Assembly (NCBI GenBank): GCA_963738485.1
Contig: CAVTWK010000002.1
Location: forward strand, 234,869-298,868
Reading direction: 5' to 3'
DNA: 64,000 nt
From: an uncultured Acidobacteriota bacterium
Lineage (GTDB): Bacteria; Acidobacteriota; Vicinamibacteria; Vicinamibacterales; SCN-69-37
The position numbers were made by a program, and so were the translations under genes. Every line of letters begins with the position of its first letter. The first letter of the stretch is position 1. This document shows, piece by piece, positions 11,945 through 62,330 of this stretch. A model generated the notes under the pieces. It ran no database searches. It was not told where the DNA came from and saw nothing but the letters and a program-made list of their open reading frames with translations.

Positions 11945-12260
11945 TCGGCCGACACTCTATCGCACTTGCGCCACCGGCTCGTCCGGCTTGACAACACGCC
12001 CCGCTCACGTGGTAGAACCAGCACAGTCTCTTCATGCACTGCTGTCCCTGCACCCCCTGTCCCAGCCACGAGCCGGCCACGTGTCGATGCTCGTGTACAG
12101 GTACCGGCCGGTCGCAGGTAGCGCGCCTTTTCATTCAGTTTCCAGTCCCTGAATCGCGCCTCCCTCGACCTGCCGGTGGGTCGTGGCGGGTTCTGGCGGG
12201 CCGTGTGGCTCGCCGCGTCGGGCGACATCCCGTCCGACGCCCTCGACAAGTGGGCGGCGC

Positions 12261-13136
12261 ATGGCACCGGAACTGTATTGGCTCTCTCTCATCACCCTCT
12301 TCGCCGCCGTCGTCAACGGCGCGCTGGGTTATGGCTTTTCCTCGCTCACGGTGCCGCTGGCGCTGCTGTTCCTCACCAACCGGGTTCTCAATCCGGCGCT
12401 GGTGGTGGTCGAGGTGGCGCTCAACGCGTACGTCTTGTGGGTGAACCGGGCCTCGTTGCCCCTCGTCTGGCGGCGCATGCTGCCAGTGGTCATCGGGCTG
12501 GCTCCGGGCGTGGTGGTGGGGACGGTGATTGTCGCCAGCGTCAGTCCCGCATGGCTCAAGCTGGGCACCTTCGCGCTGCTGTTGCCCCTGATCCTCATGC
12601 AGGCGGCCGGATGGCGCCGGCCGATTCGATCGGAGCGGTCGGTCGGTCTGGCGTTCGGCGGGGGACTCGGCGTCCTGTATTCAGTGACGACGATTCCGGG
12701 GCCGCCGCTCGCCATCCTGCTCAACAACCAGGGCCTCGCGAAGCAGGAGTTCCGGGCGGCGCTCGGCTTCATCCGCCTCGCCGAGTCCTCCCTGACCCTC
12801 GTGGCCTACACGTGGGCCGGTCTGCTGACGGCGGACAGCCTGGCCCTGGTGCCCGGCATCCTGCCGAGCATCCTGATCGGCGTGCCCATCGGCGCCTGGC
12901 TCATCCGTCGTCTGGATGCCGAGACGTTCAGGCGCGTGTGCATGAGCTTCGACGCCTGGGTGGTGGCGTTTGGCATCGCCACGCTGCTGCGGCAACTGGC
13001 GCACCTGCCGGGGCGCTACGCGGTGGGGGTCATCGTGGCCGTGGCCGTCATCGATGGCGTGTTGCTCTATCGCTACTTCTCGCGTGGTCTTGGGCGCACG
13101 ATCGCCTGGCCGGCGCCGCGACCATCCGGGGGATGA
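12261..13136 (+). CDS. TauE/SafE family sulfite exporter-like permease (possible sulfate/sulfite transporter of the cys operon)
   Basis: [38 protein letters not shown] with multiple TM helices. ATGA overlap with the cysD start. Confidence 0.85.
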
Positions 13137-14122
13137 CCGTTTCCATGAGCCTGCTGCCATCGTCGATCGACGCGCCGCCCGTACGGCCGCCCGCCGCGCC
13201 CGTCCCGCCCGGGCCGGCGCTGCCCGCGCTCGATCACCTGCGCGCCCTCGAGGCCGAGAGCCTCGCGATCATGCGGGAGGTGGTCGCCGAGTGCGAGCGG
13301 CCGGTGATGCTGTACTCGATCGGCAAGGACTCCTCGGTGCTGCTGCGCCTGGCGCAGAAGGCCTTCCATCCCGGCCCGATTCCGTTCCCGCTGCTCCACG
13401 TGGATACGACCTACAAGTTCCGCGAGATGATCGAGTTCCGCGATCGGCACGTGGCCGAGGTGGGGGCGCGACTCCTCGTGCACACCAATCTCGAGGCGAT
13501 CGACGCCGGGGCGCAGCCCTTCGCGTTGGGCACGCAGCGCTGCTGCGGACTGCTCAAGACGCGCGCCTTGCTCGACGCGCTCTCGGCCGGCCGCTTCGAC
13601 GCGGCGTTTGGCGGCGCCCGGCGCGACGAAGAGCGGTCGCGCGCCAAGGAGCGCGTGTTCTCCCTGCGCGACGACAAAGGCCAGTGGGACCCGAAGCGGC
13701 AGCGACCGGAACTGTGGTCGCTCCTGAACGCGCGGCTGAACCCCGGCGAGAGCCTGCGGGTGTTTCCGCTCTCCAACTGGACCGAGATCGACGTCTGGCA
13801 GTACATCCACGTCGAGCAGATCCCGGTCGTGCCGCTCTATTTCGCCCGCGAGCGCGAGGTGATCGTGCGGGGCGAGTCGCTGCTCTCCGTCGAGCAGCCG
13901 TTCGTGCCGCTGCTCCCGGGCGAGCGCACCGAGCGGGTGATGTGCCGCATGCGGTCGCTCGGCTGCTCGCCGTGCACGGGCGCCGTCCGGTCCACCGCCG
14001 ACACCGTGCCGAAGATCATCGAAGAGCTGATCGCGGTCAGGCAATCCGAACGGCAGCTGCGCGTGATCGACCACGACCAGGACGGCTCGATGGAGATCAA
14101 GAAGCGCGAGGGCTACTTCTGA
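13133..14122 (+). CDS. cysD: sulfate adenylyltransferase subunit 2
   Basis: PAPS-reductase-fold motif [36 protein letters not shown], and C-terminal [10 protein letters not shown]. Confidence 0.95.
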
Positions 14123-15421
14123 TGGCCTCGCTCCTGCGGATCTGCACGGCGGGCAGCGTGGACGATGGCAAGAGCACGCTCATCGGCAGGCTGCTCTACG
14201 ACTCGCGCGGCGTCTACGAAGACCAGGTGCGATCGGTCGAGCGCGCCTCGCTCCATCGCAACGCGGGGCCGATCGATTTCTCGCTCTTCACCGACGGCTT
14301 GAGGGCGGAGCGCGAGCAGGGCATCACGATCGACGTGGCGTATCGGTACTTCGCCACGAGCCAGCGTAAGTTCATCCTGGCTGACACGCCGGGCCACGAG
14401 CAGTACACGCGCAACATGGCGACGGGCGCGTCCACGGCCGATGTCGCGATCCTGCTGGTGGACGCGCGGCAGGGCATTCTCGACCAGTCACGCCGGCACG
14501 CGCGGATCGCCTCGCTGCTGGGGATCTCGAGCTTCGTGATCGCGGTCAACAAGATGGACCTCGTCGATTTCGACCGCGGCACCTTCGAGGCGATCCGGGA
14601 CGGTTTCGAGCCGCTTCTGCCGGGCGCCGTGCGCCACGCGATTCCGATCAGCGCCCTGCACGGGGACAACGTCACGGTCCGCAGCGACCGGACACCGTGG
14701 TTCGAGGGCGCGAGCCTGCTCGAGCACCTCGAGCGCGTCGAGGTCGTGCGGAACGCGGCCGCCGGGCCGTTCCGGTTCCCGGTCCAGCTCGTCTCACGCC
14801 CCTCGCACGACTTCCGTGGGTACGCGGGCCAGATCGTCTCGGGCCTGGTTCGGGTGGGCGACCCGGTGACGGCCTGGCCGTCGCGGCGGACCACGACGGT
14901 CAAGCGGATCGTGACGTGGGACGGCGACCTCGACCTGGCATTCGCGCCGATGTCGGTGACGCTCGTCCTCGAGGGCGAAACCGACATCAGTCGCGGCGAC
15001 GTGCTTGCCGACGACACGGTCTCGGCCAGCCGTCGGTTCGAGGCCGACGTCGTCTGGATGGACGAGCGCCCGCTCGACCCGGCGCGGCTCTATCGGCTCA
15101 AGCACCCGTCGGGGTTCGTCAACGCGCATGTGGATCGTCCGCTGCAGCTCAACGAGATTGCGCGCGTCTCGATCGAGGCCTCCCGACCGCTGCTGTTCGA
15201 CCGCTACACCGACGTGCGCGGCATGGGGAGCTTCGTGCTGGTCGATCCGGCCACCAACTTCACGGCCGGGGCGGGCATGATCGCCAATCCGCTCACGGAC
15301 CACCTGGCCACGCGCCACCGCGATCTCGGCGGCCCGCCTTGCGAAGGCGGCACGCGCGGCGGCGACCGAGGCCGACGCCGTCGAAGGCGTCCGGCTCACC
15401 CTCGAGGACCTGCTGTCATGA
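14122..15421 (+). CDS. cysN: sulfate adenylyltransferase subunit 1 (GTPase); 3' end needs a +1 frame correction near 15300-15360
   Basis: G-motifs GSVDDGKST, DTPGHEQY and NKMD. The start overlaps the cysD stop (TGATG). As assembled the frame runs on into cysH, but third-position GC indicates the last ~25 codons are in the +1 frame ending at TGA 15419-15421. Confidence 0.85.
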
Positions 15422-16044
15422 CCAATCCTGTCGCTCTCGTGGCCGATGAACTCGCCGCGGCGGCTCGCCCCTGCGTCACGTCGAGCTTCCAGGCCGAGTG
15501 CGTGGTCCTGGTCCACATGCTGCGCGCGCGTCTGCCGCAGGTGCCGGTCCTCTTCCTCGACACAGTGCACCATTTTCCGGAGACCTACGCGTATCGCGAC
15601 GCGCTGGCCGAACAGTGGGGGCTGAACCTCGTGAACCTGCGCGCGGCCGAGCCTCGGCCGGGCGAGTGGCGCGAAAGCACAACGGCCTGCTGTGCGCGGC
15701 ACAAGGTGGGACCGCTCTTCGCCGCGCTCGAGCCGTACGATTATTGGTTCACAGGCCTGCGGCGCGAGCAGTCGCCGTCACGGGCCGGCCTCGAACAGAT
15801 CGAGTCGTTCCGGCTGCCGACCGGCACGGTGGTCCGCAAGGTCAGCCCGCTCGCGCACTGGACCACGAAACAGGTGTGGGACTACGCGCGGGCGCACGAC
15901 ATCCCGCTCCTGCCGCTGTACGCGCAGGGCTACTCGAGCATCGGCTGTGAGCCGTGCACGACCAAGCCCCTCGACCCGGAGAATGCGCGGTCGGGGCGGT
16001 GGGCGGGGACGAAGCTCGAATGCGGCATTCACATCCAGTCGTGA
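15418..16044 (+). CDS. cysH: adenylylsulfate (APS)/PAPS reductase, thioredoxin-dependent, with Fe-S-type cysteine pattern
   Basis: TTACCARHKVGP plus SIGCEPCT (the CC...CxxC pattern typical of APS reductases) and catalytic KLECGIH at the C-terminus. Confidence 0.9.
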   Translation: MTNPVALVADELAAAARPCVTSSFQAECVVLVHMLRARLPQVPVLFLDTVHHFPETYAYRDALAEQWGLNLVNLRAAEPRPGEWRESTTACCARHKVGPLFAALEPYDYWFTGLRREQSPSRAGLEQIESFRLPTGTVVRKVSPLAHWTTKQVWDYARAHDIPLLPLYAQGYSSIGCEPCTTKPLDPENARSGRWAGTKLECGIHIQS

Positions 16045-16054
16045 TCGTGCCCGA

Positions 16055-16256
16055 GGTTCACCGCGGAGCACACGCAGGACACTCACCTCGGAGCACGCTC
16101 ACGGCGGAGAACACGGAAACACTACGCACCACGGAGGGGCGGAGGACAGAGGTTGGGGTAGGGACGCCGCTTCACCGTGGAACCAGCTTCACCCCGAAGT
16201 GAAGACAGGGGAGTGCCGCCGGCGAGAGCCCGCGAGCTCGCACCGCGGAGTCGCGG
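16055..16256 (-). repeat. cluster of inverted-orientation copies of the CTCCGCGGTGAA module (as TTCACCGCGGAG and variants)
   Basis: TTCACCGCGGAGCA at 16057, CACCTCGGAGCAC at 16084, CACGGCGGAGAAC at 16100, CACCACGGAGGGGCGGAGG at 16128, CACCGCGGAGTCGCGG at 16241. Confidence 0.7.
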
Positions 16257-16279
16257 GGGATGTCGCATGTAGTTGCTGT

Positions 16280-16663
16280 GTGACGCGACGACCCATTCAC
16301 TTGGGGATCCTTCTGCTGGCTGGCGGCAACCTCCTGCCTGCGCCTCTTGACGTCGTCGCCATCCTGCTGGCGGGTGTTCTTCTGTTCGCGTCCGGGTGGG
16401 GGAATAGCCGCGGTTGGCAGAGGTGGTGGCCTCTCTGCTGCAGCGCCCTGGCAGTTCTCGCGTTCGCAGCTCTGAGCTTTCAGGACTCCGACCAAGTGCT
16501 CCGTCGGAATGTCTTGGCTGGGCTGTTCGTGCTGTCTCTGATTGCGGGGCTCGCGCCATCTGTCGCTGGTTTGATCGCGGTGTCGGGGAGGGCGAGCGCG
16601 GCGATCGTCGGCGGGCTTGTGGCCATTCGAGATCTCAGGAAGTCGTCCGCCGGGTCGCCGTAG
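16280..16663 (+). CDS. hypothetical small polytopic membrane protein (start uncertain: GTG 16280 or TTG 16301)
   Basis: The C-terminal part of ORF 15692..16663 is strongly hydrophobic (LGILLLAGGNLLPAPLDVVAILLAGVLLFASGW, WWPLCCSALAVLAFAALSF, VLAGLFVLSLIAGLAPSVAGLIAV). It has more T-ending codons than its neighbours and no recognised family. Confidence 0.35.
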   Translation: MTRRPIHLGILLLAGGNLLPAPLDVVAILLAGVLLFASGWGNSRGWQRWWPLCCSALAVLAFAALSFQDSDQVLRRNVLAGLFVLSLIAGLAPSVAGLIAVSGRASAAIVGGLVAIRDLRKSSAGSP

Positions 16664-16700
16664 CCACTTCGGTCCGGGCGCGCGCCTGTCAGCCAGCTCG

Positions 16701-17067
16701 GTCTCTCCGCGGTGACTCGCCGCGTCTCGCTTTTCGCTCCGCCCCTCCTCGGTGAAGTCCTGTCCGTGACCCTCTGCGACGCCGGTATAGGGACCCGTCG
16801 TGGACGTTCTCGTGCTCCGCGCCCCCGCGGTGAACCCCTGTCCGTGACCCCGCTGCAGCGCCAGCCTGGCGAACCGCCCTAGCCGTTCTTGTGCTCCGCT
16901 TCTCCGCGGTGAATCCCAGCCCTGATATGCCTTGGCGTGTCGGTGGCGAATCGTCCGGTCCGCTTGCGTGCTCCGCCCCTCCGCGGTGAATCCATGCCCT
17001 GGCACTTTGGGGTCCCTATGGTGAACCCCGGTCTGTCAGGGGCCTCCGCCCCTCCGCGGTGAATCCC
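16701..17067 (+). repeat. ~77-bp periodic array: 5-6 degenerate copies of GTGCTCCGCCCCTCCGCGGTGAATCC with variable ~45-bp spacers
   Basis: Copies start at about 16703 (partial), 16734, 16812, 16891, 16968 and 17041, giving spacings of 78, 79, 77 and 73 nt. Confidence 0.85.
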
Positions 17068-17235
17068 GGTCCTTGCGCGCCGCGCCGATCTGCGGTGTAA
17101 TAGCGGTGATGTTCGCCCCCGTGTCCTGCGTCTGTTGCGCCTGTTGTCGGCCCAATGTGGGTCTGGGGCTGCTCGTGCAGGGAACGGACAGGATGCGCTG
17201 ATCGGCGCAACCGTTCAACGCGCAAGGTAGAGACC

Positions 17236-17265
17236 AGGCCCGGGATTCCGGGCCTTTTGCTTTTT
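17236..17265 (+). terminator. intrinsic terminator-like hairpin AGGCCCGG-GATT-CCGGGCCT followed by TTTGCTTTTT, 20 nt before the cysM ATG
   Basis: Perfect 8-bp GC stem, 4-nt loop and a T-rich tail, read directly. Confidence 0.6.
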
Positions 17266-17285
17266 CTGGGACATCAGACGACACC

Positions 17286-18717
17286 ATGATCGACACCACG
17301 CTCGGCGACCCTCAGCTGGCCCCACCGGCCGCCCTCATCGGGCGCACGCCGCTCGTGCGTCTGACGGCGTACGAGCGCAAGGAGGGCGTCGAGATCTACG
17401 CCAAGCTCGAGTCGCGCAATCCCGGGGGCTCGGTCAAGGATCGGGCCGCGTGGTCGATGGTTCGGGCCGGCGAGCAGGCCGGGGCACTGGGGCGCGGCAC
17501 GACGCTGCTCGACGCGACCTCGGGCAACACCGGCATCTCGTACGCGATGCTCGGCGCGGCGCGCGGATTCCGTGTGCGGCTTTGTGTGCCGGCCAACGTC
17601 ACGGTGGAGCGCAAGCGCCTCCTGGCCGCCTACGGCGCGGATGTCGTCCTCACCGATCCGATGGACGGCTCCGACGGGGCCATTCGGGAGGTGCGACGGC
17701 TGTACGCGCAGGACCCGCACCGCTACTTCTACCCGGACCAGGTACAGCAACGAGGCGAACTGGCGCGCGCACTACGAGACGACGGCGGTCGAGATCCTCG
17801 AGCAGACCGAGGGCCGCGTGACCGCGTTCGTCGCCGGGCTCGGCACGAGCGGGACGTTCATCGGCACGGGGCGTCGCCTCCGGGCGTGGAGCCGCTCGGT
17901 GCGCCTGGTCTCGGTGCAGCCGTCGTCTCCGCTGCATGGGCTGGAAGGGCTCAAACACATGCCCACGGCGATCGTGCCGGGCATCTACAATCCGACGCTG
18001 GCTGACGAGAACATCGGCGCCGACACCGAGGAGTCGTTGGCGATCGTCCGCCGGCTCGCGCGCGAGCAGGGGCTGCTCGTGGGTCCTTCGAGCGGTGCGG
18101 CGCTCTGGGCGGCGATGCGTCTGGCCGACGACCTGCGCGAGGGCGTGATCGTGGTTATCTTTCCGGACGGCGGAGAACGCTACATGTCAGACGACTTCTG
18201 GACGCGGCCGGCGCCGGGGGCCGAGGCCGACTCGTCGGGCCGAGTGTCCTCGGCGACGCCAGCCGGCGCGCAAGCCGTGCCGGGGAGCGCCTCGCCTCGT
18301 ATGCGCCTGACCTTGGCGAAAGGCCTCGACGTCGCCATTGGGGCCCACGGCGTGCGAGCGTTCCCCGAGGAATGCTGCGGCGCGCTCATCGGCACGGCAG
18401 CCGGTGCGGTCACTGAGGCCTGGCCGCTCGACAACACGACGACGCTCGAGCGCAAGCGGCGGTTTCTCGTGGGACCGGCGGAGTATCGTGCGGCCGAAGG
18501 CCGGGCGGACGCGTCTGGCCAGCAGCTGCTGGGCTTCTATCACTCACATCCCGACCACCCCGCCGTGCCGTCGGCGTTCGATCTGGAACATGCCCTGCCG
18601 AACCTGAGCTACGTTATCGTGTCCGTGCGACAGGGGGCTCCCGCCGAGATGCGGTCGTGGCGCCTGCGCGCGGACCGGTCGGGGTACGACGAAGAAACCA
18701 TCGCAGTTGGAGATTGA
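17286..18717 (+). CDS. cysM: cysteine synthase (CysM-type, PLP-dependent) fused to a JAMM/MPN+ metalloprotease (Mec+-like); one frame break at ~17742
   Basis: ORF 17286.. reads ...ESRNPGGSVKDRAAWSM...TSGNTGISYA...YFYPDQ. ORF 17572.. continues YSNEANWRAHYETTAVEI...GTSGTF...FPDGGERY. An extra G sits at 17741/17742. The C-terminal 140 aa carry FPEECCGALIG and HSHPDHPAVPSAFD, which fit ExnHxHx7Sx2D. Confidence 0.85.
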
Positions 18718-18718
18718 G

Positions 18719-20183
18719 ATGTCCGCGAAGATTCTGATTCCCACGCCCCTCCGTGCCTTCACTGGTCAGCAGGCCTCGCTCGAACTCGACGGCAGCACGG
18801 TGGGCGAGTTGCTCGCGCAGCTGACGACGAAGCACGCCGAACTGAAGACGCATCTGTACGACGCCGACGGCAAGCTGCGGTCGTTCGTCAACGTCTACGT
18901 GAACGACGAGGACATCCGCTACACGGGCCGCGAGGCCACGCCGATCGCCGCGGGCGACACGGTCAGCATCGTGCCGTCGGTGGCCGGCGGGTCGCAGGCC
19001 GTGGCCGAGCCGCTGCCGACGCTCTCGAACGAGGAAGTCGCGCGCTTCAGCCGGCACCTGATCCTCCCCGAAGTCGGCATGGAAGGGCAGCGCAAGCTGA
19101 AGGCGGCGCGCGTGCTGTGTGTGGGCGCTGGCGGCCTCGGGTCGCCCGCCTCGCTCTATCTCGCGGCGGCCGGCATCGGCACGCTCGGCCTCGTGGACTT
19201 CGACAACGTCGATGCCAGCAACTTGCAGCGGCAGATTCTGTTCAGCACCAAGGATGTGGGCCGGCCCAAGGTCGAGGCGGCACGCGACCGGTTGCAGGGC
19301 CTCAATCCGAACCTGAAGGTCAACGTCCACGAGTTCCCGCTGACCTCCGCCAACGCGTTGGACCTCTTCAGGCAGTACGACGTCATCGTCGATGGCGCGG
19401 ACAACTTTCCCACGCGCTATCTGGTCAACGACGCCTGTGTCCTCACGGGCAAGCCAAACGCCTACGGCAGCATCTTCCGCTTCGACGGCCAGGCGTCGGT
19501 CTTCGCCACCAAGGACGGCCCGTGCTACCGCTGCCTCTATCCTGAACCGCCGCCGCCCGGACTCGTGCCGAGCTGCGCCGAAGGCGGTGTGCTGGGCGTG
19601 CTGCCCGGCGTGATCGGCACGATCCAGGCGACCGAGGCGATCAAGGTGATTCTGGGTGCGGGCGAACCGCTGATCGGCCGGCTGCTGCTGTTCGACGCGC
19701 TTCACATGACGTTCCGGACGCTGAAGTTGCGCCGCGATCCCGAGTGCCCGGTCTGCGGCGACCACCCGACGGTCACCAAGCTCATCGACTACGAGCAGTT
19801 CTGCGGACTGCCGGCCGCCACGCACGCCCCGCCGGCGGCGGCGCCCGGCGAGAGCGAGTTTGCGACGACCGTCGAGACGCTCAAGGCGCGGATCGATCGC
19901 GACGACACGATCTGGATTCTGGACGTCCGGGAGCCCAACGAGTTCGAGATCGTGCGCATCCCCGGCTCGACGCTGATTCCGCTCGGACAGCTGCCGCAGC
20001 GCCTGGCCGAAGTGCCGCAGGGCGCCGACGCGCCGGACATCATCGTCCACTGCAAGATGGGCGGGCGGAGCGCCAAGGCCGTGGACCTGCTGCGCGCGCA
20101 GGGCGTCACGCGCGTGAAGAACCTCACGGGCGGCATCCTGGCCTGGGTGGATCGCATCGAATCCCTCGCAGGCCCGGTACTGA
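18719..20183 (+). CDS. moeZ: CysO/MoaD/ThiS-like ubiquitin-fold sulfur carrier (91 aa, ending VAGG) fused in frame to a MoeZ/MoeB-type E1 adenylyltransferase with a C-terminal rhodanese domain; frame break at ~20160
   Basis: MSAKILIPTPLRAFTG...TVSIVPSVAGG is followed by SQAVAEPLPTLSNEEVARFSRHLILPEVG, GAGGLGS, CYRC/CPVC and the rhodanese loop HCKMGGRS. Removing one A at 20160/61 restores the canonical tail IDPSQARY* ending at 20183. Confidence 0.85.
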
Positions 20184-20226
20184 GCCCTGGCGTGACGCAG
20201 GCCGACCGAGCCGAGACTCCGACGAG

Positions 20227-20823
20227 ATGCACCTGTTCCCAGTCTTCCTCAAGCTGGCGGGACGGCAGGTCCTGATGGTGGGAGCCGGTCCCGTGGCTAC
20301 CAGCAAGCTACCCGGTCTGCTCGAGGCCGGGGCGCGTGTCCGCGTGGTGGCGCCGGAGATGACCGACGAGATCGCCAACGCCGGTCTCGAGCTGCATCGG
20401 CGTCCGTTTCGTGACGAGGACATCGAGGGGGCCTGGCTGGTCGTGGCGGCCGCCAGCCCCGAGGTGAATCTCGCCGTCGCTCGCGCCGCCGAGGCGCGGT
20501 GCATCTTCGTCAACGCGGTGGACGATCCCCAGCCGGCCAGTGCCTACCTTGGCGGCGTCGTCCGACGCGCCGGCGTGACGATCGCGATCTCGACCGATGG
20601 CCACGCGCCGGCGATCGCCGGCCTGCTGCGCGAAGGCCTCCACGCCCTGCTGCCCGACGACCTCGATCGATGGATGGACCAGGCGCGCCAGCTGCGTCGG
20701 CAGTGGAAGGCGACGGACGTGCCGATGGAGGCGCGCCGGCCGCAGCTGCTCGATGCGCTGATTCGCCTCTACGAGGATCGCGACCATCCGGGTCCTGCTT
20801 CCCCTGCCGCGGGGCCGCGATGA
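20227..20823 (+). CDS. precorrin-2 dehydrogenase / sirohydrochlorin ferrochelatase (siroheme synthase N-terminal type)
   Basis: MHLFPVFLKLAGRQVLMVGAGPVATSKL has a Rossmann motif, and ISTDGHAPAIAGLLRE is also present. Confidence 0.85.
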   Translation: MHLFPVFLKLAGRQVLMVGAGPVATSKLPGLLEAGARVRVVAPEMTDEIANAGLELHRRPFRDEDIEGAWLVVAAASPEVNLAVARAAEARCIFVNAVDDPQPASAYLGGVVRRAGVTIAISTDGHAPAIAGLLREGLHALLPDDLDRWMDQARQLRRQWKATDVPMEARRPQLLDALIRLYEDRDHPGPASPAAGPR

Positions 20824-21593
20824 TGGGATTCGTCTCGATCGTCGGCGCCGGACCTGGCGCCCCCGATCTGCTGACCGTCCGCGCGGCCCGACGACTCGAG
20901 GACGCCGACCTCGTGCTGCACGACGGTCTTGTGCCGATGGCGATCGTCGAGTTGGCGCGACAGGCGCGGCGCCTGCCCGTGTCCCGGCGCCCAGGGTCCA
21001 CGCGCGTGCAGCCCGCGGCCGCCGCGGGACTGATGATCGACGCGGCCCGCGCCGGCCAGAAGGTGGTGCGGCTGCGGGCGGGCGATCCGTTCATCCTGGC
21101 GCGCGGGGCCGAGGAGGCGCTCGAGCTGGTGGCCGCCGAGGTGCCGTTCGAGATCGTGCCTGGGCTGACCACGGCATCGGCGGCGCCGACCCTTGCCGGG
21201 ATGCCCCTCACGCATCGGGGTGTCGCCTCGGGCTTCCTCGTGATCTCAGGCCACGCCCCCGAGGCGTACGGCCCGACGCTTTCAGGACTGCCGGCGCACG
21301 GCGTGACGCTCGTCGTGCTGATGGGACTCGCCGAGCGCGGTCGCATCGCCGAGACCCTGCTCGCGCAGGGATGGCGGGCAGACACGTCGACGGTGGTGCT
21401 GCTCGCCTCGTCGCACCCGGAGGCGCGCACCCGCGCCGGCCGGCTGGATCAGTTGGGTCACGACGATGCCGAGATGTCGCCGGGAATCCCGGGCGTGATC
21501 GTCATCGGTGACGTCGTGGACGTGGGATTGAGGATCGCGGCGGCGATGACGTCGAGCGATCGGGTACTCGAGGAGACCGCATGGCAGCCGTAG
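20820..21593 (+). CDS. cobA: uroporphyrinogen-III C-methyltransferase
   Basis: VSIVGAGPGAPDLLTVRAARRLEDADLVLHD, RLRAGDPFILARGAEE, and VPGLTTASAAP. Confidence 0.9.
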   Translation: MMGFVSIVGAGPGAPDLLTVRAARRLEDADLVLHDGLVPMAIVELARQARRLPVSRRPGSTRVQPAAAAGLMIDAARAGQKVVRLRAGDPFILARGAEEALELVAAEVPFEIVPGLTTASAAPTLAGMPLTHRGVASGFLVISGHAPEAYGPTLSGLPAHGVTLVVLMGLAERGRIAETLLAQGWRADTSTVVLLASSHPEARTRAGRLDQLGHDDAEMSPGIPGVIVIGDVVDVGLRIAAAMTSSDRVLEETAWQP

Positions 21594-23416
21594 ACGATCC
21601 GAAGACGATGGGACGCGCCCGACTCTCGTTCGCGACCGAAGCCGAAGTGGACGAGTTCGCCGAGAAGCTGGTGCTGTTCGAGAACGGCGACATCGGCCCC
21701 GACGAGTGGCGGGCCTACCGGCTGTTGCGCGGGACCTACGGGCAGCGCCAGCCCGAAGCCGTGCATATGATTCGCGTCAAGATTCCCCAGGGTCTGCTGG
21801 TCGCCGACCAGCTCGACGCGCTCGCGGACGTGGCGGATCGGTATTCGCGCGGCTTCGGCCACATCACCACGCGTCAGAACCTGCAGTTCCATTTCGTCCC
21901 GCTGGCCTCGGTCGAGGACGCGATGCGCAGGCTCGCCGAGGCTGGCCTCACGACGCGTGAGGCGTGTGGCAACTCCGTGCGTAACATCACGTGCTGCCAG
22001 TACGCGGGGGTGGCGGCCGACGAGGCGTTCGACATCACGCCGTATTCGGAGGCGCTCACGCGCTACTTCCTGCGTCACCCGCTTGCCTCGTCGCTGCCGC
22101 GCAAGTTCAAGGTGGCCTTCGAAGGGTGCCCCGAGGACCACGCCAAGGCGGCGATCAACGACATCGGCTGGTTCGCGCGTGTCGTGGACGGCAAGCGCGG
22201 CTTCCGGGTCGTCATCGGCGGCGGCACCGCGATCATGTGCACGCCCGGCAAACCGCTGTTCGACTTCCTGCCCGTCGAGGAAATGTTCAACGTCGGCGAG
22301 GCGGTGCTGCGGGTGTTCCACGCACTGGGCGATTACAAGCACAAGGCCCGCAACCGGATGAAGTTCCTCATCAAGGCGATGGGCTGGGACAAGTGGCAGG
22401 ACACGTTCTTCGACACCTACGCCCATGTGCAGGCCGAGGGTGGAAAGCCGTTGCCGGCAGAGTTGCTGGCCCCGGTCGATGAGCCGGCGCCCGCGTGGAC
22501 CCGCCCCGTGCCGCCGTCGGCTGAGGAGGTCGCGCGCCGTGTGCTGGGCGCCGAGCTGCGTGGTCCCGGCATCCGGCCCGACACCAAGCCCGATCTGACG
22601 CCCACGACCGATGCCTACGCGCGATGGGCAAGGACCAACGTGCTGCTGCAGAAGCAGCCGGGTTTCGTGACCGCCATCGTCACCGTGCCGCTCGGCGATC
22701 TCACCGGCGCACAGATCCGGGTGCTCGCCGATCTGTCGCGGGCGTACGGCGACGGCGCGGTGCGCGTCACCGCGGTGCAGAACCTGATCATCCGCTGGGT
22801 GCCGGCCGACGAGACGCAGGAACTCTATCGACGCCTCGCGGCCGCGGGCCTCGGGCTTGGCGGGGCCGACACGGTCTCGGATGTGACGAGCTGCCCCGGC
22901 GCCGAGTCGTGCAAGCTGGCCGTGACGCAGTCCCGCGGGCTGGGCAAGACGCTCGAGCTTCACCTGCGCGAGGATTCGACGGTGAGTGACCGCGCGCCGC
23001 GCATCGACGTCAAGGTGAGCGGCTGCCCGAACGGGTGCGGACAACATCACATCGCGGGCATCGGATTCCAGGGCAGCCTGCGCAAGGTCGGCGATCAGCC
23101 GGTCCCCCAGTACTTCGTCATGGTCGGCGGCGGCGTCAGCAACGCCTCCGCCCGCTTCGGCAAGGTCATCGCCAAGGTTCCAGCGCGCCGTTGCACCACC
23201 GCGCTCGACCGCCTGCTCGCCCTCTATGCAGCGGAACGTCGTCCTGACGAATCAGGCGAAGCGTTCTTCCAGCGCGCCGAGATTCCGCGCCTCAAGGCAC
23301 TGCTCGCCGACCTCGAAGTCATGACGCCCGAGACGGCCACGCCCGACGACTTCATCGACCTGGCCGAGACGCACGCCTTCAAGCCAGAGACGATGGACGG
23401 GGAGTGCGCGACCTAA
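21581..23416 (+). CDS. sir: ferredoxin-type sulfite reductase (NirA/Sir family, siroheme-[4Fe-4S])
   Basis: RGTYGQRQ, HITTRQNLQFHFV, TCPGAESCKLAVTQS, and SGCPNGCGQHHIAGIGF. Confidence 0.9.
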   Translation: MAAVDDPKTMGRARLSFATEAEVDEFAEKLVLFENGDIGPDEWRAYRLLRGTYGQRQPEAVHMIRVKIPQGLLVADQLDALADVADRYSRGFGHITTRQNLQFHFVPLASVEDAMRRLAEAGLTTREACGNSVRNITCCQYAGVAADEAFDITPYSEALTRYFLRHPLASSLPRKFKVAFEGCPEDHAKAAINDIGWFARVVDGKRGFRVVIGGGTAIMCTPGKPLFDFLPVEEMFNVGEAVLRVFHALGDYKHKARNRMKFLIKAMGWDKWQDTFFDTYAHVQAEGGKPLPAELLAPVDEPAPAWTRPVPPSAEEVARRVLGAELRGPGIRPDTKPDLTPTTDAYARWARTNVLLQKQPGFVTAIVTVPLGDLTGAQIRVLADLSRAYGDGAVRVTAVQNLIIRWVPADETQELYRRLAAAGLGLGGADTVSDVTSCPGAESCKLAVTQSRGLGKTLELHLREDSTVSDRAPRIDVKVSGCPNGCGQHHIAGIGFQGSLRKVGDQPVPQYFVMVGGGVSNASARFGKVIAKVPARRCTTALDRLLALYAAERRPDESGEAFFQRAEIPRLKALLADLEVMTPETATPDDFIDLAETHAFKPETMDGECAT

Positions 23417-24974: not shown

Positions 24975-27390
24975 ATGCTCCTGCAGGACGTCCGCTTCGC
25001 GCTGCGTTCCCTCCGCCGTAGTCCGGGTTTCGCCGCAGTCGCGCTGTTGTGCCTGGGGCTGGGCATCGGTGTGACGTCCACGATCTTCAGCATGATCGAC
25101 GGGATCATCCTGAAGCCCATGCCGTATGCGGACCCGGAACGGCTGGTCGTGCCCGTGGGCGTCAATCGGCCACAGGATATCGAGCGCTCGTCGATCTCCT
25201 ACCTCGACTTCACCGACTGGAGGGCGCAGGCGTCGTCCTTTGCCGGGATCGGCGGCGTTCAAGGCCGCAGTCTCACGGTCTCGGACGGATCCGGCGAGCC
25301 GCAGCGCTACCTCGGCGCCCTCGTCAGCTGGGACCTGTTTCCGCTGCTCGGCGTCGCACCGGTCCTCGGGAGTGGTTTCACGGCCGCGCACGACGAGCCG
25401 GGTGCAGAGCGCGTAGCCGTCCTCAGCCACGTGGTCTGGCGTGAGCGCTACCAGAGCGACCCGGGAATCATCGGGCGCAGTGTCCTGATCAATGCGGCGC
25501 CGACGGTCATCATCGGCGTCATGCCCAGGGACTTCGAGTTTCCGGGCACGCAGAAGCTCTGGCTGCCGCTGGGGCCGTTTGCCAACCGGACATCGCGCGA
25601 GGCGCGCACGGTCTCGATGTTCGCGCGGCTGGCGCCCGGCGCCAGCATCGACCGCGCGCGTGCCGAGCTATCGACGGTGGCCGGCATGCTCGCGCGTGAG
25701 CATGCCGCGACGAACGAGGACTGGAGCGCCTCGATCCTGACGCTCCGCGAGTGGTCCGTCCCCGACGACGTCACCCGCGTGCTGTGGCTGATGATGGCCG
25801 GCGTCACGCTGGTGCTCTTCATCGCGTGTTCGAACGTGGCCAACCTCCAGTTGGCGCGCGCCTCCGCGCGTCGTCGCGAGATCTCCGTGCGCGCCGCACT
25901 AGGCGCCGAGCGTCGGCGCATCATCACGCAGTTGCTGACCGAGAGCGTCGTGCTCTCCCTCCTGGCGGTGCCGGTCGGCATCGCGGTGGCCGAGGTGGGC
26001 ACGCGGCTCATCGCGTCGGCGATTCCGCGCGACCAAGTACCGAGCTACATCACGTGGGACGTGGACTATCGCTCGATCCTCTTCACGATGGCCATCGCGG
26101 TGACGACGGCGGTGGTCTTCGGCCTGTTTCCCGCGCTGCAAGCCTCACGTGGCGAACTGCACGGCGACCTGAAGGAAGGCACGCGCGGCAACAGCGTCCG
26201 CCGGTCGCTGCTGCGCAGTTCGCTGGTGGTCGCCCAGGTGTCCCTCGCGATCGTCGCGCTCGTTGGCGCCCTCCTCTTCGTCAAGACGTTCCAGAATCTC
26301 GACTGGTACCGAGGTCGGGTTCGACACGACGCCTTTGATGACCATGCGCTTCTCGATGGGCGGCGACGCCTACGAGCTGCCGGATGCGCGGGCCCGTCGC
26401 GTCGAGGACATCGTCGGGCGTGTCGAGCGGTTGCCGGGCGTGTCAGCGGCCTTCGCGTCCAATCTCGTCCCCATGGGCGGCGGCGGCGGAGGCGGCAACG
26501 TCGACGTCGAGGGCTTCCAGGTGGATCGGGGTCGCGAGCCGGGGATCTCGTTCACCGGCGTGACCCCCGGCTTCTACCGGACCATCGGCGTCAGCCTGGT
26601 GCGCGGTCGTGATTTCACCCTTGCCGAAGGCTGGTCCCGGTCGGGCCTGGCTGTCATCAACCAGACGATGGCCGACCGCTTCTGGAAGGATCGCGATCCG
26701 ATTGGCGGACGCTTCCGCATGGTGCGCGGCGACGCGGTCAACCAGTGGTTTACCGTGATCGGCGTGGCGCGCGACATCAAGCAGGACGACATCGACCCGG
26801 AGGACGAGCCGTTTCCCGCGGCCTATGTGCCCTACCTCTACCAGCAGACCCTCAACACGGGCCTGACGGTGCGGGTCGCCACGGGGGATCCCGCCGCGAT
26901 TACCTCAGCTGTCCGCAGCGAGCTTCGCGCATCGGACAGCAACATCCCGATGTTCCAGGTGGCGACGATGGAAGAGGTGCGCCGCCTCGGTTTCTGGCAG
27001 TTCGCGCTGTTCGGCTGGATCTTCGGCACAATCGGCAGCATCGCCCTCGTGCTGGCCGGCGTGGGCGTCTACGGCGTGCTGTCCTACGCGGTCGCCCAGC
27101 GCACACCGGAGATTGGCGTGCGGATGGCGCTCGGTGCCAGCCAGGCCAGCGTCCTGCGGCTGGTAGTGAGGCAGGGTGTGGGATTGGCGTCCATTGGCGT
27201 CGTGATCGGCCTGGTGCTTTCCGCCCTCGCGATGCCACAGGCGCAGTCGCTGCTCTACAACGTGAGCCCCTTCGATCCGTGGGTGTTCACGGAGGTCGCG
27301 CTGTTCCTGCTCGCCGTTGCGTTCCTCGCCAGCTTCATCCCCGCACGCCGCGCGACCAAGGTGGATCCGCTCACGGCGCTCAGGGGGTAG
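24975..27390 (+). CDS. ADOP-family (MacB-like, duplicated FtsX) ABC permease; frame break near 26300-26312
   Basis: N-terminus [42 protein letters not shown] 24975..26612 and ORF 26263..27390 join at ...FVKTFQNLD / EVGFDTTPLMTMRF. C-terminal FIPARRATKVDPLTALRG. Confidence 0.8.
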
Positions 27391-27817
27391 ATCAGGTCCG
27401 CCGGGTACGGCGGGTACGTCAGGTACAGGGGTGCGACGGGTACCAGGTACGGCGGGTACACCGGTACGGCGGGTACACCGGTGCGCCAGGTCCACCGGCG
27501 CATCAGGTACGCCGGGGCGGCGCGCCTGTGGCCTGCACGGCCACGATGCCGGGGCCGCATGACCTGGCGCACGGGACCCCGCCCCGGAGGCCCTGTTCGC
27601 GAGGCCCACTGGCTTCGAGGCCCCGGAGGACCTGCGGGACGCAGGAACCTGTCGACCCTGAGCACACGGCGCACGCAGTACCCCTCAGACCCTGGCACCC
27701 GTACCCCGGGACCCGTTGTACCCGGGGACCTGTCGTACCGGGGTACCTTTCGTACCCGGGTACCTGGTGCACCCCTGTACCTGCCGTACCCGTGGTACCC
27801 GGCGGACCTGATCTACC
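27386..27817. repeat. 432-bp imperfect palindrome built from GGGTAC/AGGTAC words (left half) and GTACCC/GTACCT words (right half), filling the gap between two convergent ADOP permease genes
   Basis: The outermost 23 bp are exact reverse complements (27386-27408 and 27795-27817) and include both stop codons. Confidence 0.9.
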
Positions 27818-33756: not shown

Positions 33757-34106
33757 GTCCCCGTAGCCCGTGCGCCGTTTACAGTGGGCCGTAGCCCGCA
33801 GCCCGTAGCCCGTTCGCCGTTGTCCGTCTGCTGTCTGCGGTCTGCCGTAGCCCGTCTGTCGTCTGCCGAGTCCGTAGCCCGTCGGCCGTGGGTCGTAGTC
33901 TGTAGCCCGTCTGCCGTAGCCCGTTGTCCGTAGCTCGTGGGCCGTCTTGCCGTAGCCCGTGGTCCGTAGCCCGTCTGCCGTCTGCCGTAGCCCGTTCGCC
34001 GTAGCCCGTCTGCCGTCGGCCGTCGGCCGTAGTCCGTAGCCCGTCTGCTGTCTGCCGTCTCCCGTAGCCCGTTTTCCGTCTCCCGTGGCCCGTCTGCCGC
34101 CGTAGT
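33757..34106 (+). repeat. degenerate heptanucleotide array (unit GTNNNCC, i.e. NNNCCGT), about 50 consecutive units, 13 copies of GTAGCCCG
   Basis: Read directly, for example GTCTGCC GTCTGCC GTAGCCC GTTCGCC GTAGCCC GTCTGCC GTCGGCC GTCGGCC GTAGTCC GTAGCCC. It fills the divergent phr / S9 peptidase intergenic region. Confidence 0.9.
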
Positions 34107-34160
34107 ACACTGGCGCCGCCGGTCCGGTTTCGACCCCGCCGGCATCCAGAGGAGAGTGTC

Positions 34161-36452
34161 ATGTCCGCTCGTCGCACGCGCGCCCACGCGGGCCGCCAGG
34201 CTGTCGTTGCCGCTGCGGTCTTGTCCGCCGCGGCCCTGTCTGCGCAGGGGCCCGCGCAGGTCCCCCAGCTCGACCGGCTCAAGGGCTTGCCGGGCGTCGA
34301 TCAGTTCACGAAGATGCAGGACGCCCTTCGCACCGGCGGTCCCGCGCTCGTATCGGGGGCCCTGCCGACGACGTGGGCCGGCGACGGGCAGTCGTTCACG
34401 TACGCGTTCGGCGGCAAGCTCCATCGGTTCGAGGTCGCGAGCGGAAAGCCGGTCGAGATCGGCGACGCCCCTGTGGCCGGCGGCGGCGCCGGCGGTGGGC
34501 GCGGCGCGGGCGGACGTGGCGGCGGTCTGCCGCCTGGTGGGGGCGTCGCGCCGGCCGGCGGCGGTGCCGGCGGGCGCGGTGGTCGAGGGGGCGCGACGAC
34601 GCTGCCCTCGGGCGCCCCGAACCCCTGCCCGGTCGAGCAGGTGGCGCGGGGACGTCAGAGCAGCCTGCGCGCCCTCGCCCGACGGCAAGATGAAGGCCTA
34701 CTACCGCGACCGCAATCTCTACCTCAGCAACGCGGACGGGTCTGGCGAAGTGGCGCTATCGACGGACGGCGACGAGAAGAAGCGCATCAAATACGGCGTC
34801 GGCAGCTGGGTCTATGGCGAGGAACTGGGTCAGACGACGGCCATCTGGTGGTCCCCCGATGCGACCAAGGTCGGCTTCTACCGGTTCGACGAGAGCCCGG
34901 TGAAGGACTACTTCCTGCAGATGGATCAGACGCAGGTCCACACGTCGCTCGACGTCGAGGCGTACCCGAAGGCCGGCACCGACAATCCGATTGCCGACGT
35001 GCTCGTCTACGACATCGCGACGAAGAAGAGCACGACGCTCGACATTCGCGACGGCAAGCCGTTCACCAACGACGTCGTCGGGCACTACGTCTACGCCATG
35101 CAGTGGGCCGCCGACGGCACCGAACTGCTGATGAACCGCACGAATCGGCGCCAGCAGGTCATGGAGCTGGTCGGCTGCGCGCCGGCCACGGGCGAAGTGC
35201 CGCGTCATCGTGCGCGAGGAATGGCCGACCGGCTGGGTGGACAACCGGCCGCAGATGCGGCTGCTCGAGGACGGGAAGCGGTTCATCTGGGAATCCGATC
35301 GCAACGGCTGGACCAACTACTACCTCTACGATCTGAGCGGCAAGCTGATCAACCCGATCACGACGCTCACGACGTCCGAAGCCGGCGCGATCGTCAAGCT
35401 GGATGAGAAGGCGGGCGTGCATGTTCTACATGGCGCGCGACGGTGACGACTACATGAAGCTGCAGCTGCATCGCGTGGGGCTCGACGGCCGGGGCGACGT
35501 GCGCCTCACCGATCCCGCGTTCACGCACGCCGTGACGATGTCGCCGGACAACCGCTACTTCGTCGATGTGTACCAGGCGCACGACGCGCCGCCCGCGACG
35601 CGGCTCGTGGACATGACGGGCAAGGTCGTGGCCGAGCTGGCCAAGAGCGACCTCTCACGCTTCACGCAGCTCGGCCTCAAGACGCGTCGAGATGTTCACC
35701 TACAAGGCGGCCGACGGCAAGACGACGCTTTACGGAACGATCGCGTTTCCGTCGAACTTCGATCCGTCGAAGAAGTATCCGACGCTGGTGCCCGTGTATG
35801 GCGGCCCGGCCTCGGGCAGCAACGTCCCGACTGCGAGACGTTCGTGACGCCAAGCCCGACGACCGAGTACGGGTTCCTCGTCGTCAACCTGAGCTCGCGC
35901 GCGGCGCCGGGCATGGGACGCCGGACGCTCGACTCGATCTATCTGAAGCTCGGTCAGACGGAAATGGACGACATGGCCGAAGGCATCAAGGCGCTCTGGT
36001 CGCGCCCGTACTTCGACAAGGCGCGCGTCGGCATCTACGGCACGTCGTACGGCGGCTACACGGCCGCGATGCAGATCCTGCGCTATCCGGACGTGTTCAC
36101 CGTCGCGGTGGCCAGTTCGGCGGTCACCGACTGGCGGCACTACGACACGATTTACACCGAGCGCTACATGTGGATCCCGCAGGAGAACAAGGAGGGGTAC
36201 GACGAGGGCAGCGCGATGCCGTACGCGGCGAACCTCAAGGGCCGCCTGCTGATCTACTACGGCACGGCGGACAACAACGTCCATCCGAACAACGCCATGC
36301 AGCTTATTCGCGCGCTGCAGGCCGCGGGCAAGAGCTTCGAGGTGCAGGTCGGGCCCGATCTGGGCCATACCGGCGTGAACAACGGGCGGATGATGGAGTT
36401 CTTCATCGAGAACATGGTCGTCCGGCCGGAGCGGGTGCTGGTCGGCGGATAG
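34161..36452 (+). pseudogene. S9 family peptidase (DPP-IV / prolyl oligopeptidase-like) interrupted by at least 5 frameshifts as assembled
   Basis: Pieces in alternating frames: signal peptide and Gly/Arg-rich region (34161..); APSPDGKMKAYYRDRNLYLSN...; CRVIVREEWPTGWVDNRPQMRLLEDGKRFIWESDRNGW...; MFYMARDGDDYMKLQLHRVGLDG...; VEMFTYKAADGKTTLYGTIAFPSNFDPSKKYPTLVPVYGGPASGSN; ETFVTPSPTTEYGF...GIYGTSYGGY (catalytic Ser)...ADNNVHP. Breaks lie at about 34660, 35190, 35419, 35686 and 35838. Confidence 0.6.
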
Positions 36453-45918: not shown

Positions 45919-46016
45919 ACAGGTACGCCGGGTACTCCAGGTACGCCGGGTACTCCAGGTACACGGGTACGCCAGGTACTCGGGTACACCAGGTACTCGG
46001 GTACGACAGGTACGCA
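45911..46016 (+). repeat. 17-18-bp tandem repeat (CAGGTACGCCGGGTACTC-like), about 6 copies, beginning inside the last codons of ahcY
   Basis: CAGGTAC recurs at 45909, 45920, 45938, 45956, 45973, 45990 and 46007. Confidence 0.85.
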
Positions 46017-53029: not shown

Positions 53030-53250
53030 CTCAAGGGGAAAGTGCCAGAGGTGCTGGCTGGAGCACTTGAGGTGCTGGAGCGAATAGCATGCGAGGTGCT
53101 GGAGCGAAGAGCACTTGAGGTGCTGGCGGGAGAGGCACGTGAGGTGCTGGAGCACGAGCACCTGAGGTGCGGCCGGACATCGCCGTCGGTACGGGGACCT
53201 GAGTGCCTTTCCACCGGGACTTGGGCGTGAGTTCCGGGACGTCTGCGTAA
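53030..53250 (+). repeat. 24-bp tandem repeat built on GAGGTGCTGG (5 copies plus 1 variant), followed by a CCGGGACTT-module block shared with 62.2 kb
   Basis: GAGGTGCTGG at 53048, 53069, 53093, 53117 and 53141; GAGGTGCGG at 53164. CCGGGACTTGGGCGTGAGTTCCGGGAC at 53214-53240 matches 62261-62287 at 25 of 27 positions. Confidence 0.85.
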
Positions 53251-62004: not shown

Positions 62005-62330
62005 GGGCAGGGCACGGCACGGACAGTGACGTGCGGGAGTGAAGGGCACAGCACGCACATCATGAGGTGCTGGTGCTGACAGTGATGTGCCGGAGTGACG
62101 GGCACCTGAGGTGCACACGGACGGTGACGTGCAGGGAGTGACGGGCACCTGAGGTGCACACGGATTGGACCTGGGCGTCAGTGCCGGGACTTCGCCGAGC
62201 GCAGCGAGGTACCGGGACTTGAGCGTCAGTTCCGGGACTTCTGCTGAGCGAAGCGAAGCACCGGGACTTGGGCGTCAGTCCCGGGACTTCGCCGAGCGCA
62301 GCGAGCCCCCGGGACTTCGCCCCCCGTGAG
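62005..62330 (+). repeat. composite repeat block: GGAGTGACGGGCACCTGAGGTGCACACGGA x2 (perfect, 43-nt register), then three CCGGGACTT-module units including a 36-bp repeat with 1 mismatch
   Basis: 30-mers at 62092-62121 and 62135-62164. GGGCGTCAGT[GC]CCGGGACTTCGCCGAGCGCAGCGAG at 62173-62208 and 62270-62305. Confidence 0.9.

Follow-up and report, generated by a model that had tools for sequence, protein, structure and literature searches.

How can a ubiquitin-like sulfur carrier be put to work when its reading frame runs straight on into that of the enzyme that activates it? The question is raised by a locus at positions 17,286 to 20,183 of a 64,000-nucleotide stretch of DNA (hereafter the window) from an uncultured Acidobacteriota bacterium of the Vicinamibacterales (SCN-69-37; assembly GCA_963738485.1, contig CAVTWK010000002.1, positions 234,869 to 298,868 of the forward strand). 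Two adjacent genes encode a CysM-like pyridoxal-phosphate (PLP) enzyme joined to a JAMM/MPN+ protease (gene A) and a CysO-like carrier joined to a MoeZ-type activating enzyme (E1) and a rhodanese (gene B). We think it probable that the locus, which sits inside an operon for assimilatory sulfate reduction, encodes a working protein-thiocarboxylate route to cysteine compacted into two genes, and that the single-base frameshifts interrupting both genes in the deposited contig are assembly errors.

Gene A (17286-18717) encodes 476 aa once an extra base at 17742 is removed, and gene B (18719-20183) encodes 487 aa once an extra base at 20161 is removed; both genes, their domains and the operon genes named below lie on the + strand. 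At the junction of the two (18709-18721), a GGAG ribosome-binding site (18709-18712) is followed by the gene A stop (TGA, 18715-18717), which ends one base ahead of the gene B start (ATG, 18719-18721), and homologs of gene B begin at the equivalent Met. An earlier note, made from the letters alone, had read two adjacent genes with four activities at this place, and that reading held: Pfam matched PALP, Prok-JAB, ThiS, ThiF and Rhodanese, and every motif it quoted was recovered, including the GG codons of the carrier at 18986-18991. Profile search detected both the beta-grasp carrier (ThiS, E 7e-16) and the JAMM domain (Prok-JAB, E 2e-23), and no stop lies between the C-terminal half of CysM and JAMM (open reading frame, ORF, 17572-18717) or between GG and E1 (ORF 18707-20275). 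The note's two proteins needed amendment: the fusions are genuine, but neither protein is intact as written, each gene carrying a one-base insertion, and its end coordinate of 20183 is right only after frame correction, the uncorrected frame running to 20275.

The arrangement is not a singular curiosity. Relatives of the E1 protein are encoded by at least 597 stretches of species-representative genomes; we compared 81 loci, consisting of the best 80 of these and the nearest relative (L001). Most of the 81 are from Acidobacteriota (Vicinamibacteria, Bryobacterales, Terriglobales, Blastocatellia and Thermoanaerobaculia). The carrier-E1-rhodanese frame is uninterrupted in 60/81 loci, split in 20 and frameshifted in 1. 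The survey of ortholog architectures that the earlier note had called for thus bears out the first fusion broadly and the second narrowly: CysM and JAMM occupy one ORF only in the three closest loci (L001-L003) and are adjacent separate genes in 69. The gene order CysM-JAMM-carrier-E1 is held in 72/81 loci, and in the nearest genome the two fused genes stand side by side and encode 470 and 487 aa. Among the matches listed, ThiS, ThiF and Rhodanese occur in all gene B homologs (n = 120; 72-90% identity, 473-546 aa), the best of which (P0001) matches across 100% of the length at 90% identity and likewise has 487 aa, and PALP and Prok-JAB occur in all gene A homologs (n = 120; more than 120 metagenomic protein clusters). 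On this comparison of sequences both fusions are genuine and are kept in many independent assemblies, the carrier-E1 fusion phylum-wide and the CysM-JAMM fusion confined to the close relatives of the window. We also considered whether the fusions could be artefacts of missing stops, which is ruled out by many independent assemblies with differing linker lengths.

Loci in which carrier and E1 are separate are informative about the fused ones. In all 20 split loci the carrier frame stops 1-27 codons past GG, and E1 restarts at its own Met; a stop directly after GG, which would have spoken against a fused or tailed carrier, was never seen. Since 0/20 split carriers end at GG, C-terminal trimming appears to be the rule for these relatives. 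Among stand-alone carriers, some more distant ones do have GG as their very last residues (P0282 and P0365); when the 91-aa carrier was the sole query, the matches were mostly contig-end fragments, with a few full-length stand-alone carriers. On a neighbour-joining tree of the E1-rhodanese part, quickly made and rough, there are at least 10 changes between the fused and the split state, an argument for the functional equivalence of the two forms. Wherever a fused locus has enough sequence on its flanks, its operon includes a JAMM gene. Two other interpretations of the split loci were rejected. Readthrough or recoding of the stops does not fit the use of all three stop codons (TAA in 8, TGA in 6 and TAG in 6) or the E1's own downstream Met, and the shared frame of carrier and E1 is no evidence of recent splitting, being an ascertainment effect of tblastn alignments that run through stops.

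Several relatives are unusual in their own right. Stand-alone carriers of the Terriglobales type bear cysteine-rich tails past GG (L071, L073, L077, L061, L067 and L051; P0260, P0270, P0309 and P0333), which read up to the stop, for example, as GGCCPCGCCCCPR, GGSCACCCPCRMNA, GGACACYCPCRMNA, GGCCVMTCGT, GGSSCCR and GGICIV; metal binding, mimicry of the GG-Cys adduct and regulation are possible purposes. In an Omnitrophica-labelled locus (L054, 6001-8412) there is nearly no linker between carrier and E1 (GG-AK-GLSNDEI...), and the JAMM gene follows the E1 gene instead of preceding it. Some metagenome-assembled genomes (MAGs) with odd taxon labels (Cyanobacteriota, Bifidobacteriaceae, Chitinophagaceae, Heliobacteria, Thermoplasmata and Acetobacteraceae, among L006, L020, L027, L056, L058, L064, L068 and L078) carry operons 60-68% identical to that of the window, which may reflect mis-binning or mislabelling. 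Because these labels clash with the sequence similarity, the spread of the fusion beyond Acidobacteriota is uncertain.

The first 91 residues of gene B (18719-18991) form a beta-grasp sulfur-carrier domain that ends in SVAGG (18977-18991) and whose nearest solved structures are CysO of Mycobacterium tuberculosis (3dwg_C, E 5e-19) and a CysO-type carrier (4n6e_B, E 6e-18). The GG is internal to the polypeptide rather than C-terminal and is invariant in 80/81 loci, the exception being the frameshifted MAG; the preceding S-[IV]-A is invariant too. Between GG and E1 lies the linker SQAVAEPLP (18992-19018), with a putative cut site at G91/S92 (between 18991 and 18992). Across the 60 fused relatives the spacer from GG to the conserved E1 block ranges from almost 0 to ~34 residues (median 8) and is unconserved in sequence. 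In the AlphaFold2 models the carrier domain has a predicted local distance difference test score (pLDDT) of 81-93, the window's gene B model a mean of 80 and the rhodanese ~90, and residues 87-97, comprising SVAGG and the linker, fall below 50 between the well-folded carrier and E1.

The ThiF/MoeB-type adenylation domain of gene B (19046-19753; Pfam ThiF, E 4e-86) contains the nucleotide loop GAGGLGS (19124-19144), the zinc-binding CxxC pairs CYRC (19523-19534) and CPVC (19745-19756) and the crossover-loop Cys within SCAEGG (19571-19588), and the rhodanese domain (19868-20149; E 7e-17) contains its active-site Cys, C445, within HCKMGGRS (20048-20071). The nucleotide loop, both CxxC pairs and the crossover-loop and rhodanese Cys are all invariant in homologs. 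The best structural match of the E1 is Uba4 (PDB 6yub), with MoeB (1jw9) also matched, and gene B scores 548 bits against NCBIfam MoeB (cut-off 633) and 515 bits against MoeZ (cut-off 647).

Gene A pairs a cysteine synthase-like domain with a protease. The PALP domain (17334-18168) is matched by Pfam in two frames (profile positions 4-134, E 3e-35, and 133-295, E 1e-26) and contains GGSVKDR with the PLP-binding lysine (17424-17444), the TSGNTG loop (17517-17534) and the CysM-type loop GLEGLKHM (17938-17961), which is invariant in the aligned fused homologs. A low-complexity linker (RPAPGAEADSSGRVSSATPAGAQAVPGSASPR, 18205-18300), variable in length and sequence among fused homologs, joins it to the JAMM/MPN+ domain (18334-18666); in the ortholog P0122 the equivalent residues 310-330 have pLDDT <50. 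The JAMM domain matches PDB 2kcq_A (E 3e-28) as well as Prok-JAB and also the haloarchaeal desampylase family of NCBIfam (E 1e-17). It carries the catalytic Glu in EECCG (18367-18381) and the HxHx7Sx2D motif HSHPDHPAVPSAFD (18541-18582), and its E, H, H, S and D are invariant across 57 homologs. Gene A as a whole can be aligned colinearly with 11 full-length homologs (64-89% identity). Judging from the structural models, both the GG tail with its linker and the CysM-JAMM linker are presumably flexible and the cut site accessible.

These features suggest a mechanism. The fused reading frame of gene B, as read from the corrected sequence, would be translated as a 487-aa precursor in which carrier residues 1-91 are tethered to their own E1 by a 9-residue flexible linker. 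Adenylation by an E1 needs a free glycine carboxylate, and the carrier must therefore be cut from E1 after Gly91. A metalloprotease, most likely the JAMM domain of gene A, would cut the Gly91-Ser92 bond and expose the GG carboxylate. By homology, E1 would then adenylate Gly91, which would be turned into a thiocarboxylate either by the persulfide of the rhodanese or by sulfide that the neighbouring sulfite reductase supplies; the CysM-like domain would join the thiocarboxylate to the aminoacrylate formed from O-phosphoserine or O-acetylserine, and an S-to-N acyl shift would give carrier-Gly-Gly-Cys. Finally, the tethered JAMM would hydrolyse the Gly-Cys bond like Mec+, freeing cysteine and recycling the carrier. 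One JAMM active site can plausibly do both jobs, maturing the carrier and releasing cysteine, because both bonds are peptide bonds directly after GG. We regard the tethered JAMM as a reasonable candidate for the cutting protease, and the best one, since the bond is of the same type, related JAMMs cleave fusions and its gene lies one base upstream of the substrate gene. That the fused ubiquitin-like domain is itself the carrier is argued by its closest structure being CysO, by its invariant GG and by the lack of any other ThiS-like gene in the window or in the relatives' operons. Extended to much of Acidobacteriota, the same idea would have the carrier made only as a pro-protein, either short-tailed or E1-fused, with one JAMM, tethered to the cysteine synthase in the lineage of the window, maturing it and releasing cysteine in each cycle; we judge the case for and against this extension to be evenly balanced.

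A number of points weigh against our interpretation. For every member of the fused family, we infer the cleavage, the protease and the product alike. The co-occurrence of JAMM is not independent evidence of maturation, because Mec+-like release of cysteine already explains it. The weakest link is the PALP domain, whose donor we take to be a protein thiocarboxylate rather than sulfide. The label 'CysM-type' given to it in the earlier note is loose: PALP and the PLP lysine are present, and the domain is only 36% identical to M. tuberculosis CysM (checked against 3dwg_A) and has a Lys aligned to the phosphoserine-binding Arg220 of that enzyme. It scores 339 bits against NCBIfam TIGR01138 cysM (cut-off 394) and 332 against cysKM (cut-off 344), and it matches O-acetylserine sulfhydrylase of Thermus thermophilus and M. 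tuberculosis CysK1 as well as, or marginally better than, CysM. With that level of identity, scores below both cut-offs and slightly better matches to the sulfhydrylases, use of a thiocarboxylate by this domain is putative. The gene pair of L001 does not adjoin sulfate-reduction genes. Finally, the deposited contig carries both frameshifts, its called products being 358 aa (P0124) and 518 aa (P0391), and searches of metagenome contigs for the exact pattern of the 17742 site, with and without the extra base, found no independent copy of the same strain.

Which protease frees the carrier is the step at which a different account fares best. A housekeeping protease or another JAMM could release it, leaving the CysM-tethered JAMM only to free cysteine from carrier-Cys. 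The Mec+-like role would then account fully for the presence of JAMM, the MoaX-cleaving protease of M. tuberculosis was not known in 2015 (PMC4326299), and stand-alone carriers ending exactly at GG, as in P0282 and P0365, fit this division of labour. Yet the bond after GG is of the kind that Mec+-type enzymes hydrolyse: Mec+ itself cleaves CysO-Cys, where the S-to-N shift has left carrier-GG joined to Cys through a peptide bond (PMC3227635). Linear fusions are cut by related JAMMs, DRJAMM cleaving DR2607 (MoaD-MoaE) of Deinococcus radiodurans and HvJAMM1 cleaving SAMP1-MoaE of Haloferax volcanii (PMC8832034), and tail trimming has been proposed for QbsD and CxnF. The window's JAMM domain scores against the desampylase family, and its gene is tightly linked to that of the precursor, with one base between stop and start. 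Taken together, we find release by some other protease unlikely.

The release itself can also be questioned. The beta-grasp domain might stay on E1 for good as a built-in docking or regulatory module, a role proposed for the ubiquitin-like domain of Campylobacter-type ThiF, with sulfur being transferred by a free carrier encoded elsewhere. Against this, the domain resembles CysO and keeps an invariant GG, it is a separate small protein at the same operon position in 20 related loci, and its tail and linker, which lack conservation, have a predicted flexibility. There is precedent for such a module, in that Iyer et al. describe a ThiF with a fused N-terminal ubiquitin-like domain beside a stand-alone ThiS, implying another role (PMC1779556), and the visible part of the genome here is the 64-kb window. 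Within that window there is no second ThiS-like gene or E1, and the fused genes of the relatives are accompanied by CysM and JAMM as operon partners, with no stand-alone ThiS and no thiamine genes beside them. A carrier domain that is never released thus seems improbable to us.

A third account changes the product, such that the PALP domain would use a different acceptor and the pathway would make a thiocarboxylate-derived metabolite, homocysteine/methionine or molybdopterin. The genomic surroundings point to cysteine. Upstream lie a TauE/SafE-like permease (12153-13136), cysD (13106-14122), cysN (14119 to ~15421) and cysH (15418-16044), and downstream a sirC-like siroheme synthase N-domain (20227-20823), the cobA uroporphyrinogen methyltransferase (20895-21593) and a ferredoxin-type sulfite reductase (21581-23416), all assigned by Pfam, with the end of cysN read from its junction. 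The cysH product carries a CC...CxxC signature, a mark of adenosine 5'-phosphosulfate (APS)-type reductases that fits the lack of any APS kinase gene. Here, as in L002 and L013, the gene pair has cysDNH on one side and the siroheme and sulfite-reductase genes on the other, a CysM-like gene is adjacent in 72/81 loci, and the best NCBIfam families for the PALP domain are cysM, cysKM and cysK. The sulfate-reduction context was recognized in the earlier note together with the lack of cysK and cysE, and a Pfam scan of ~55 ORFs of the window agrees, with no serine acetyltransferase and no second PALP enzyme or cysteine synthase; these absences carry little weight since 64 kb is roughly 1% of such a genome. 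That MoeZ-type E1s can serve several carriers (PMC3227635), that operons of the JAB/E1/ThiS kind are known from siderophore and methionine pathways too (Iyer et al., PMC1779556) and that the PALP domain falls below equivalog cut-offs would suit a product other than cysteine, which we nonetheless consider very unlikely.

The frameshifts bear on whether the locus works at all. The first is an extra G (GACCAG-G-TACAGC, 17742), which puts CysM residues 1-152 out of frame with the rest; at this site ~75 related loci read CAGTAC or CAATAC, and one other MAG (L021) has the identical extra G. The second is an extra A (ATCGA-A-TCC, 20161), which shifts the last 8 codons of gene B and replaces the C-terminus DRIDPSQARY, with its true stop at 20181-20183, by a 37-residue out-of-frame tail to 20275. 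The motif DP[ST/G]xx[KR]Y followed by the stop ends the gene B homologs in 24/25 loci inspected; L021 has the motif and stops one codon early. Once corrected, both proteins (476 and 487 aa) match homologs of equal length from the first residue to the last. Neither gene has lost an invariant residue or gained an in-frame stop, and the coding signal in third-position GC content (GC3) runs across both shifts.

A scan of all 159 GTAC sites of the window found five coding-frame switches exactly at GGTAC, in cysM (17742), a MacB-type permease (26306), the N-terminus of its paralog (30109), an outer-membrane receptor (41198) and a Ser/Thr kinase (49139). The switch at 26306 is a clean +1 shift by alignment to the paralog. 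Because of this motif-linked recurrence in unrelated genes, the same G in L021 and the otherwise intact and conserved state of both genes, the two insertions are, from the sequence evidence, most likely assembly errors arising from systematic base-calling or polishing. The GGTAC-linked shifts suggest a motif-specific systematic error, perhaps at methylated GTAC. The shifted receptor is of the CarboxypepD_reg/beta-barrel type and the permeases are MacB/FtsX-type; on the opposite strand the motif reads GTACC. Programmed +1 ribosomal frameshifting at CAG-G-UAC was considered and rejected, given no slippery or stalling context, the unrelated genes hit and the extra base in only one other assembly.

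That the locus is instead decaying, with real insertions, the pathway lost, CysM truncated, JAMM untranslated and the E1 tail altered, is the least credible account of all, for although the insertions stand in the public contig, gene callers gave truncated and extended products and no intact independent copy of the strain was found, there are no in-frame stops and no substitutions at invariant positions, the GC3 signal continues, GGTAC switches also break the permease (two genes), the receptor and the kinase within 64 kb, a DPP-IV peptidase and the cysN tail look shifted as well, and the identical extra G in another MAG together with the motif-linked recurrence points to base-calling or polishing error.

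Other parts of the window show similar disturbances. The DPP-IV/prolyl oligopeptidase (S9) gene (34033-36452) is split over at least 2-3 frames, with the DPPIV_N profile (46-222) matched in one ORF and Peptidase_S9 in another, and a Gly/Ala-rich stretch with an 18-nt repeat lies in its region at 34475-34581. cysN and cysH read as one 641-codon ORF (14119-16044) through an Arg-rich stretch (junction ~15290-15421). In the +1 frame, cysN has a plausible tail (RLAKAARAAATEADAVEGVRLTLEDLLS, followed by the stop) whose TGA overlaps the cysH ATG at 15418, and the apparent cysN-cysH fusion is probably another indel artefact, to judge from these frames.

The window is also rich in repeats. Ahead of gene A is a 1.2-kb repeat-rich spacer (16044-17286) with five degenerate tandem units of ~73-79 nt (16686-17080; core GCTCCGCCCCTCCGCGGTGAATCC). 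Copies of this core in inverted orientation (16044-16260) flank what may be a small membrane ORF (~16250-16663), for which GC3 shows no coding signal. Rfam at gathering thresholds gave no match in the window, this spacer included. Tandem arrays of 8-9-nt (17-nt) GGTAC-based units occur at 27402-27515, 27700-27799 and 45920-46015; two of these, oppositely oriented, make up a long inverted pair in the spacer where the two MacB-like genes converge, and the third lies directly past the stop of an S-adenosylhomocysteine hydrolase gene. Further short-period intergenic arrays are found at 33788-34099, 53061-53170 and 62078-62317.

If the proposed mechanism holds, the locus would be a compact two-gene system in which a JAMM protease matures a ubiquitin-like protein from a linear fusion. 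Such a system would show whether one active site also recycles the carrier, and it bears on the prokaryotic origin of ubiquitin precursor processing, of which it would be a bacterial metabolic counterpart, with JAMM in the part of the deubiquitinases. Making the ubiquitin-like protein as part of its own activating enzyme would permit a 1:1 stoichiometry and a prompt transfer to the adenylation site. Judging from how widely the fused genes are distributed, thiocarboxylate-dependent synthesis of cysteine would seem to be common in Acidobacteriota, among the most abundant phyla of soil, and not limited to actinobacteria. Current automatic annotation masks this pathway under the names 'MoeB', 'cysteine synthase B' and 'pyridoxal-phosphate dependent enzyme'; public pipelines already name the proteins 'sulfur-carrier protein adenylyltransferase/sulfurtransferase' and 'cysteine synthase B'. 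There is also a practical caution, in that motif-specific frameshifts in this assembly can make intact genes look like pseudogenes or false fusions.

A first comparison with known systems is with M. tuberculosis, where CysO ends exactly at GG and moeZ is unlinked. The CysO/CysM/Mec+/MoeZ(R) system of that species has the same four modules, is genetically linked and is tied to sulfur assimilation (Burns et al. 2005; PMC3227635). There the modules are four separate proteins; the window has two polypeptides, an internal GG that calls for an extra maturation cut and a CysM domain of only 36% identity, with Lys in place of Arg220. The gene set itself has also been described. As operon type 4c, Iyer, Burroughs and Aravind (2006) listed the combination of ThiS/MoaD, E1-rhodanese, JAB and cysteine synthase for Acidobacteria (Solibacter) among others, with the same predicted function, and in the text and table available to us only the E1-rhodanese fusion is mentioned, not a carrier-E1 or cysteine synthase-JAB fusion (PMC1779556). 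Full-text literature searches found no description of the carrier-E1 or CysM-JAMM arrangement; a mention in Burroughs et al. 2009, on the E1-like superfamily, is possible. The Campylobacter-type ThiF differs in having a fused ubiquitin-like domain distinct from ThiS, a stand-alone ThiS and a thiamine operon, whereas the window's domain matches ThiS/CysO and keeps its GG.

Carriers with C-terminal extensions provide a second comparison. HcyS and HcyD of Wolinella are a tail-bearing carrier and JAMM system. QbsE/QbsD and CxnE/CxnF likewise consist of tailed carriers with a JAMM in the same cluster, and QbsD and CxnF were proposed to trim the tails (PMC5925218). Tails of this kind, of 1-27 residues, are seen in the 20 split relatives of the window; in the window itself the 'tail' is a 396-residue E1-rhodanese. 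Eukaryotic ubiquitin precursors (polyubiquitin and ubiquitin-ribosomal protein) are also linear fusions freed by a deubiquitinase-type protease, although the likeness is one of analogy only. To our knowledge, E1 itself is the fusion partner in no eukaryotic ubiquitin precursor. Uba4/MOCS3 resembles the window's E1 in carrying a C-terminal rhodanese. The window has no conjugation machinery.

A further parallel lies in MoaD-MoaE fusions, in which the ubiquitin-like protein is likewise the N-terminal part of a pathway enzyme and is cut after GG, by JAMMs in Deinococcus and Haloferax. For MoaX of M. tuberculosis, cleavage at GG is required for activity (PMC4326299). In these fusions the partner is the consuming enzyme, MoaE, of the molybdopterin pathway, whereas the partner in gene B is the activating E1-rhodanese of a putative cysteine pathway, which makes gene B a variant of the MoaD-MoaE fusion type rather than a member. 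The principle itself, release by JAB of ThiS/MoaD domains from the proteins that they are fused to, was predicted in 2006 by Iyer et al. (PMC1779556), and cleavage of a carrier from an enzyme has been shown for MoaD-MoaE fusions. What differs in the window, as its reading frames have it, is the placement of both partners: the carrier is on the activating E1 and not on the consuming enzyme, and the protease, unlike that of the MoaD-MoaE systems, is on the consuming enzyme.

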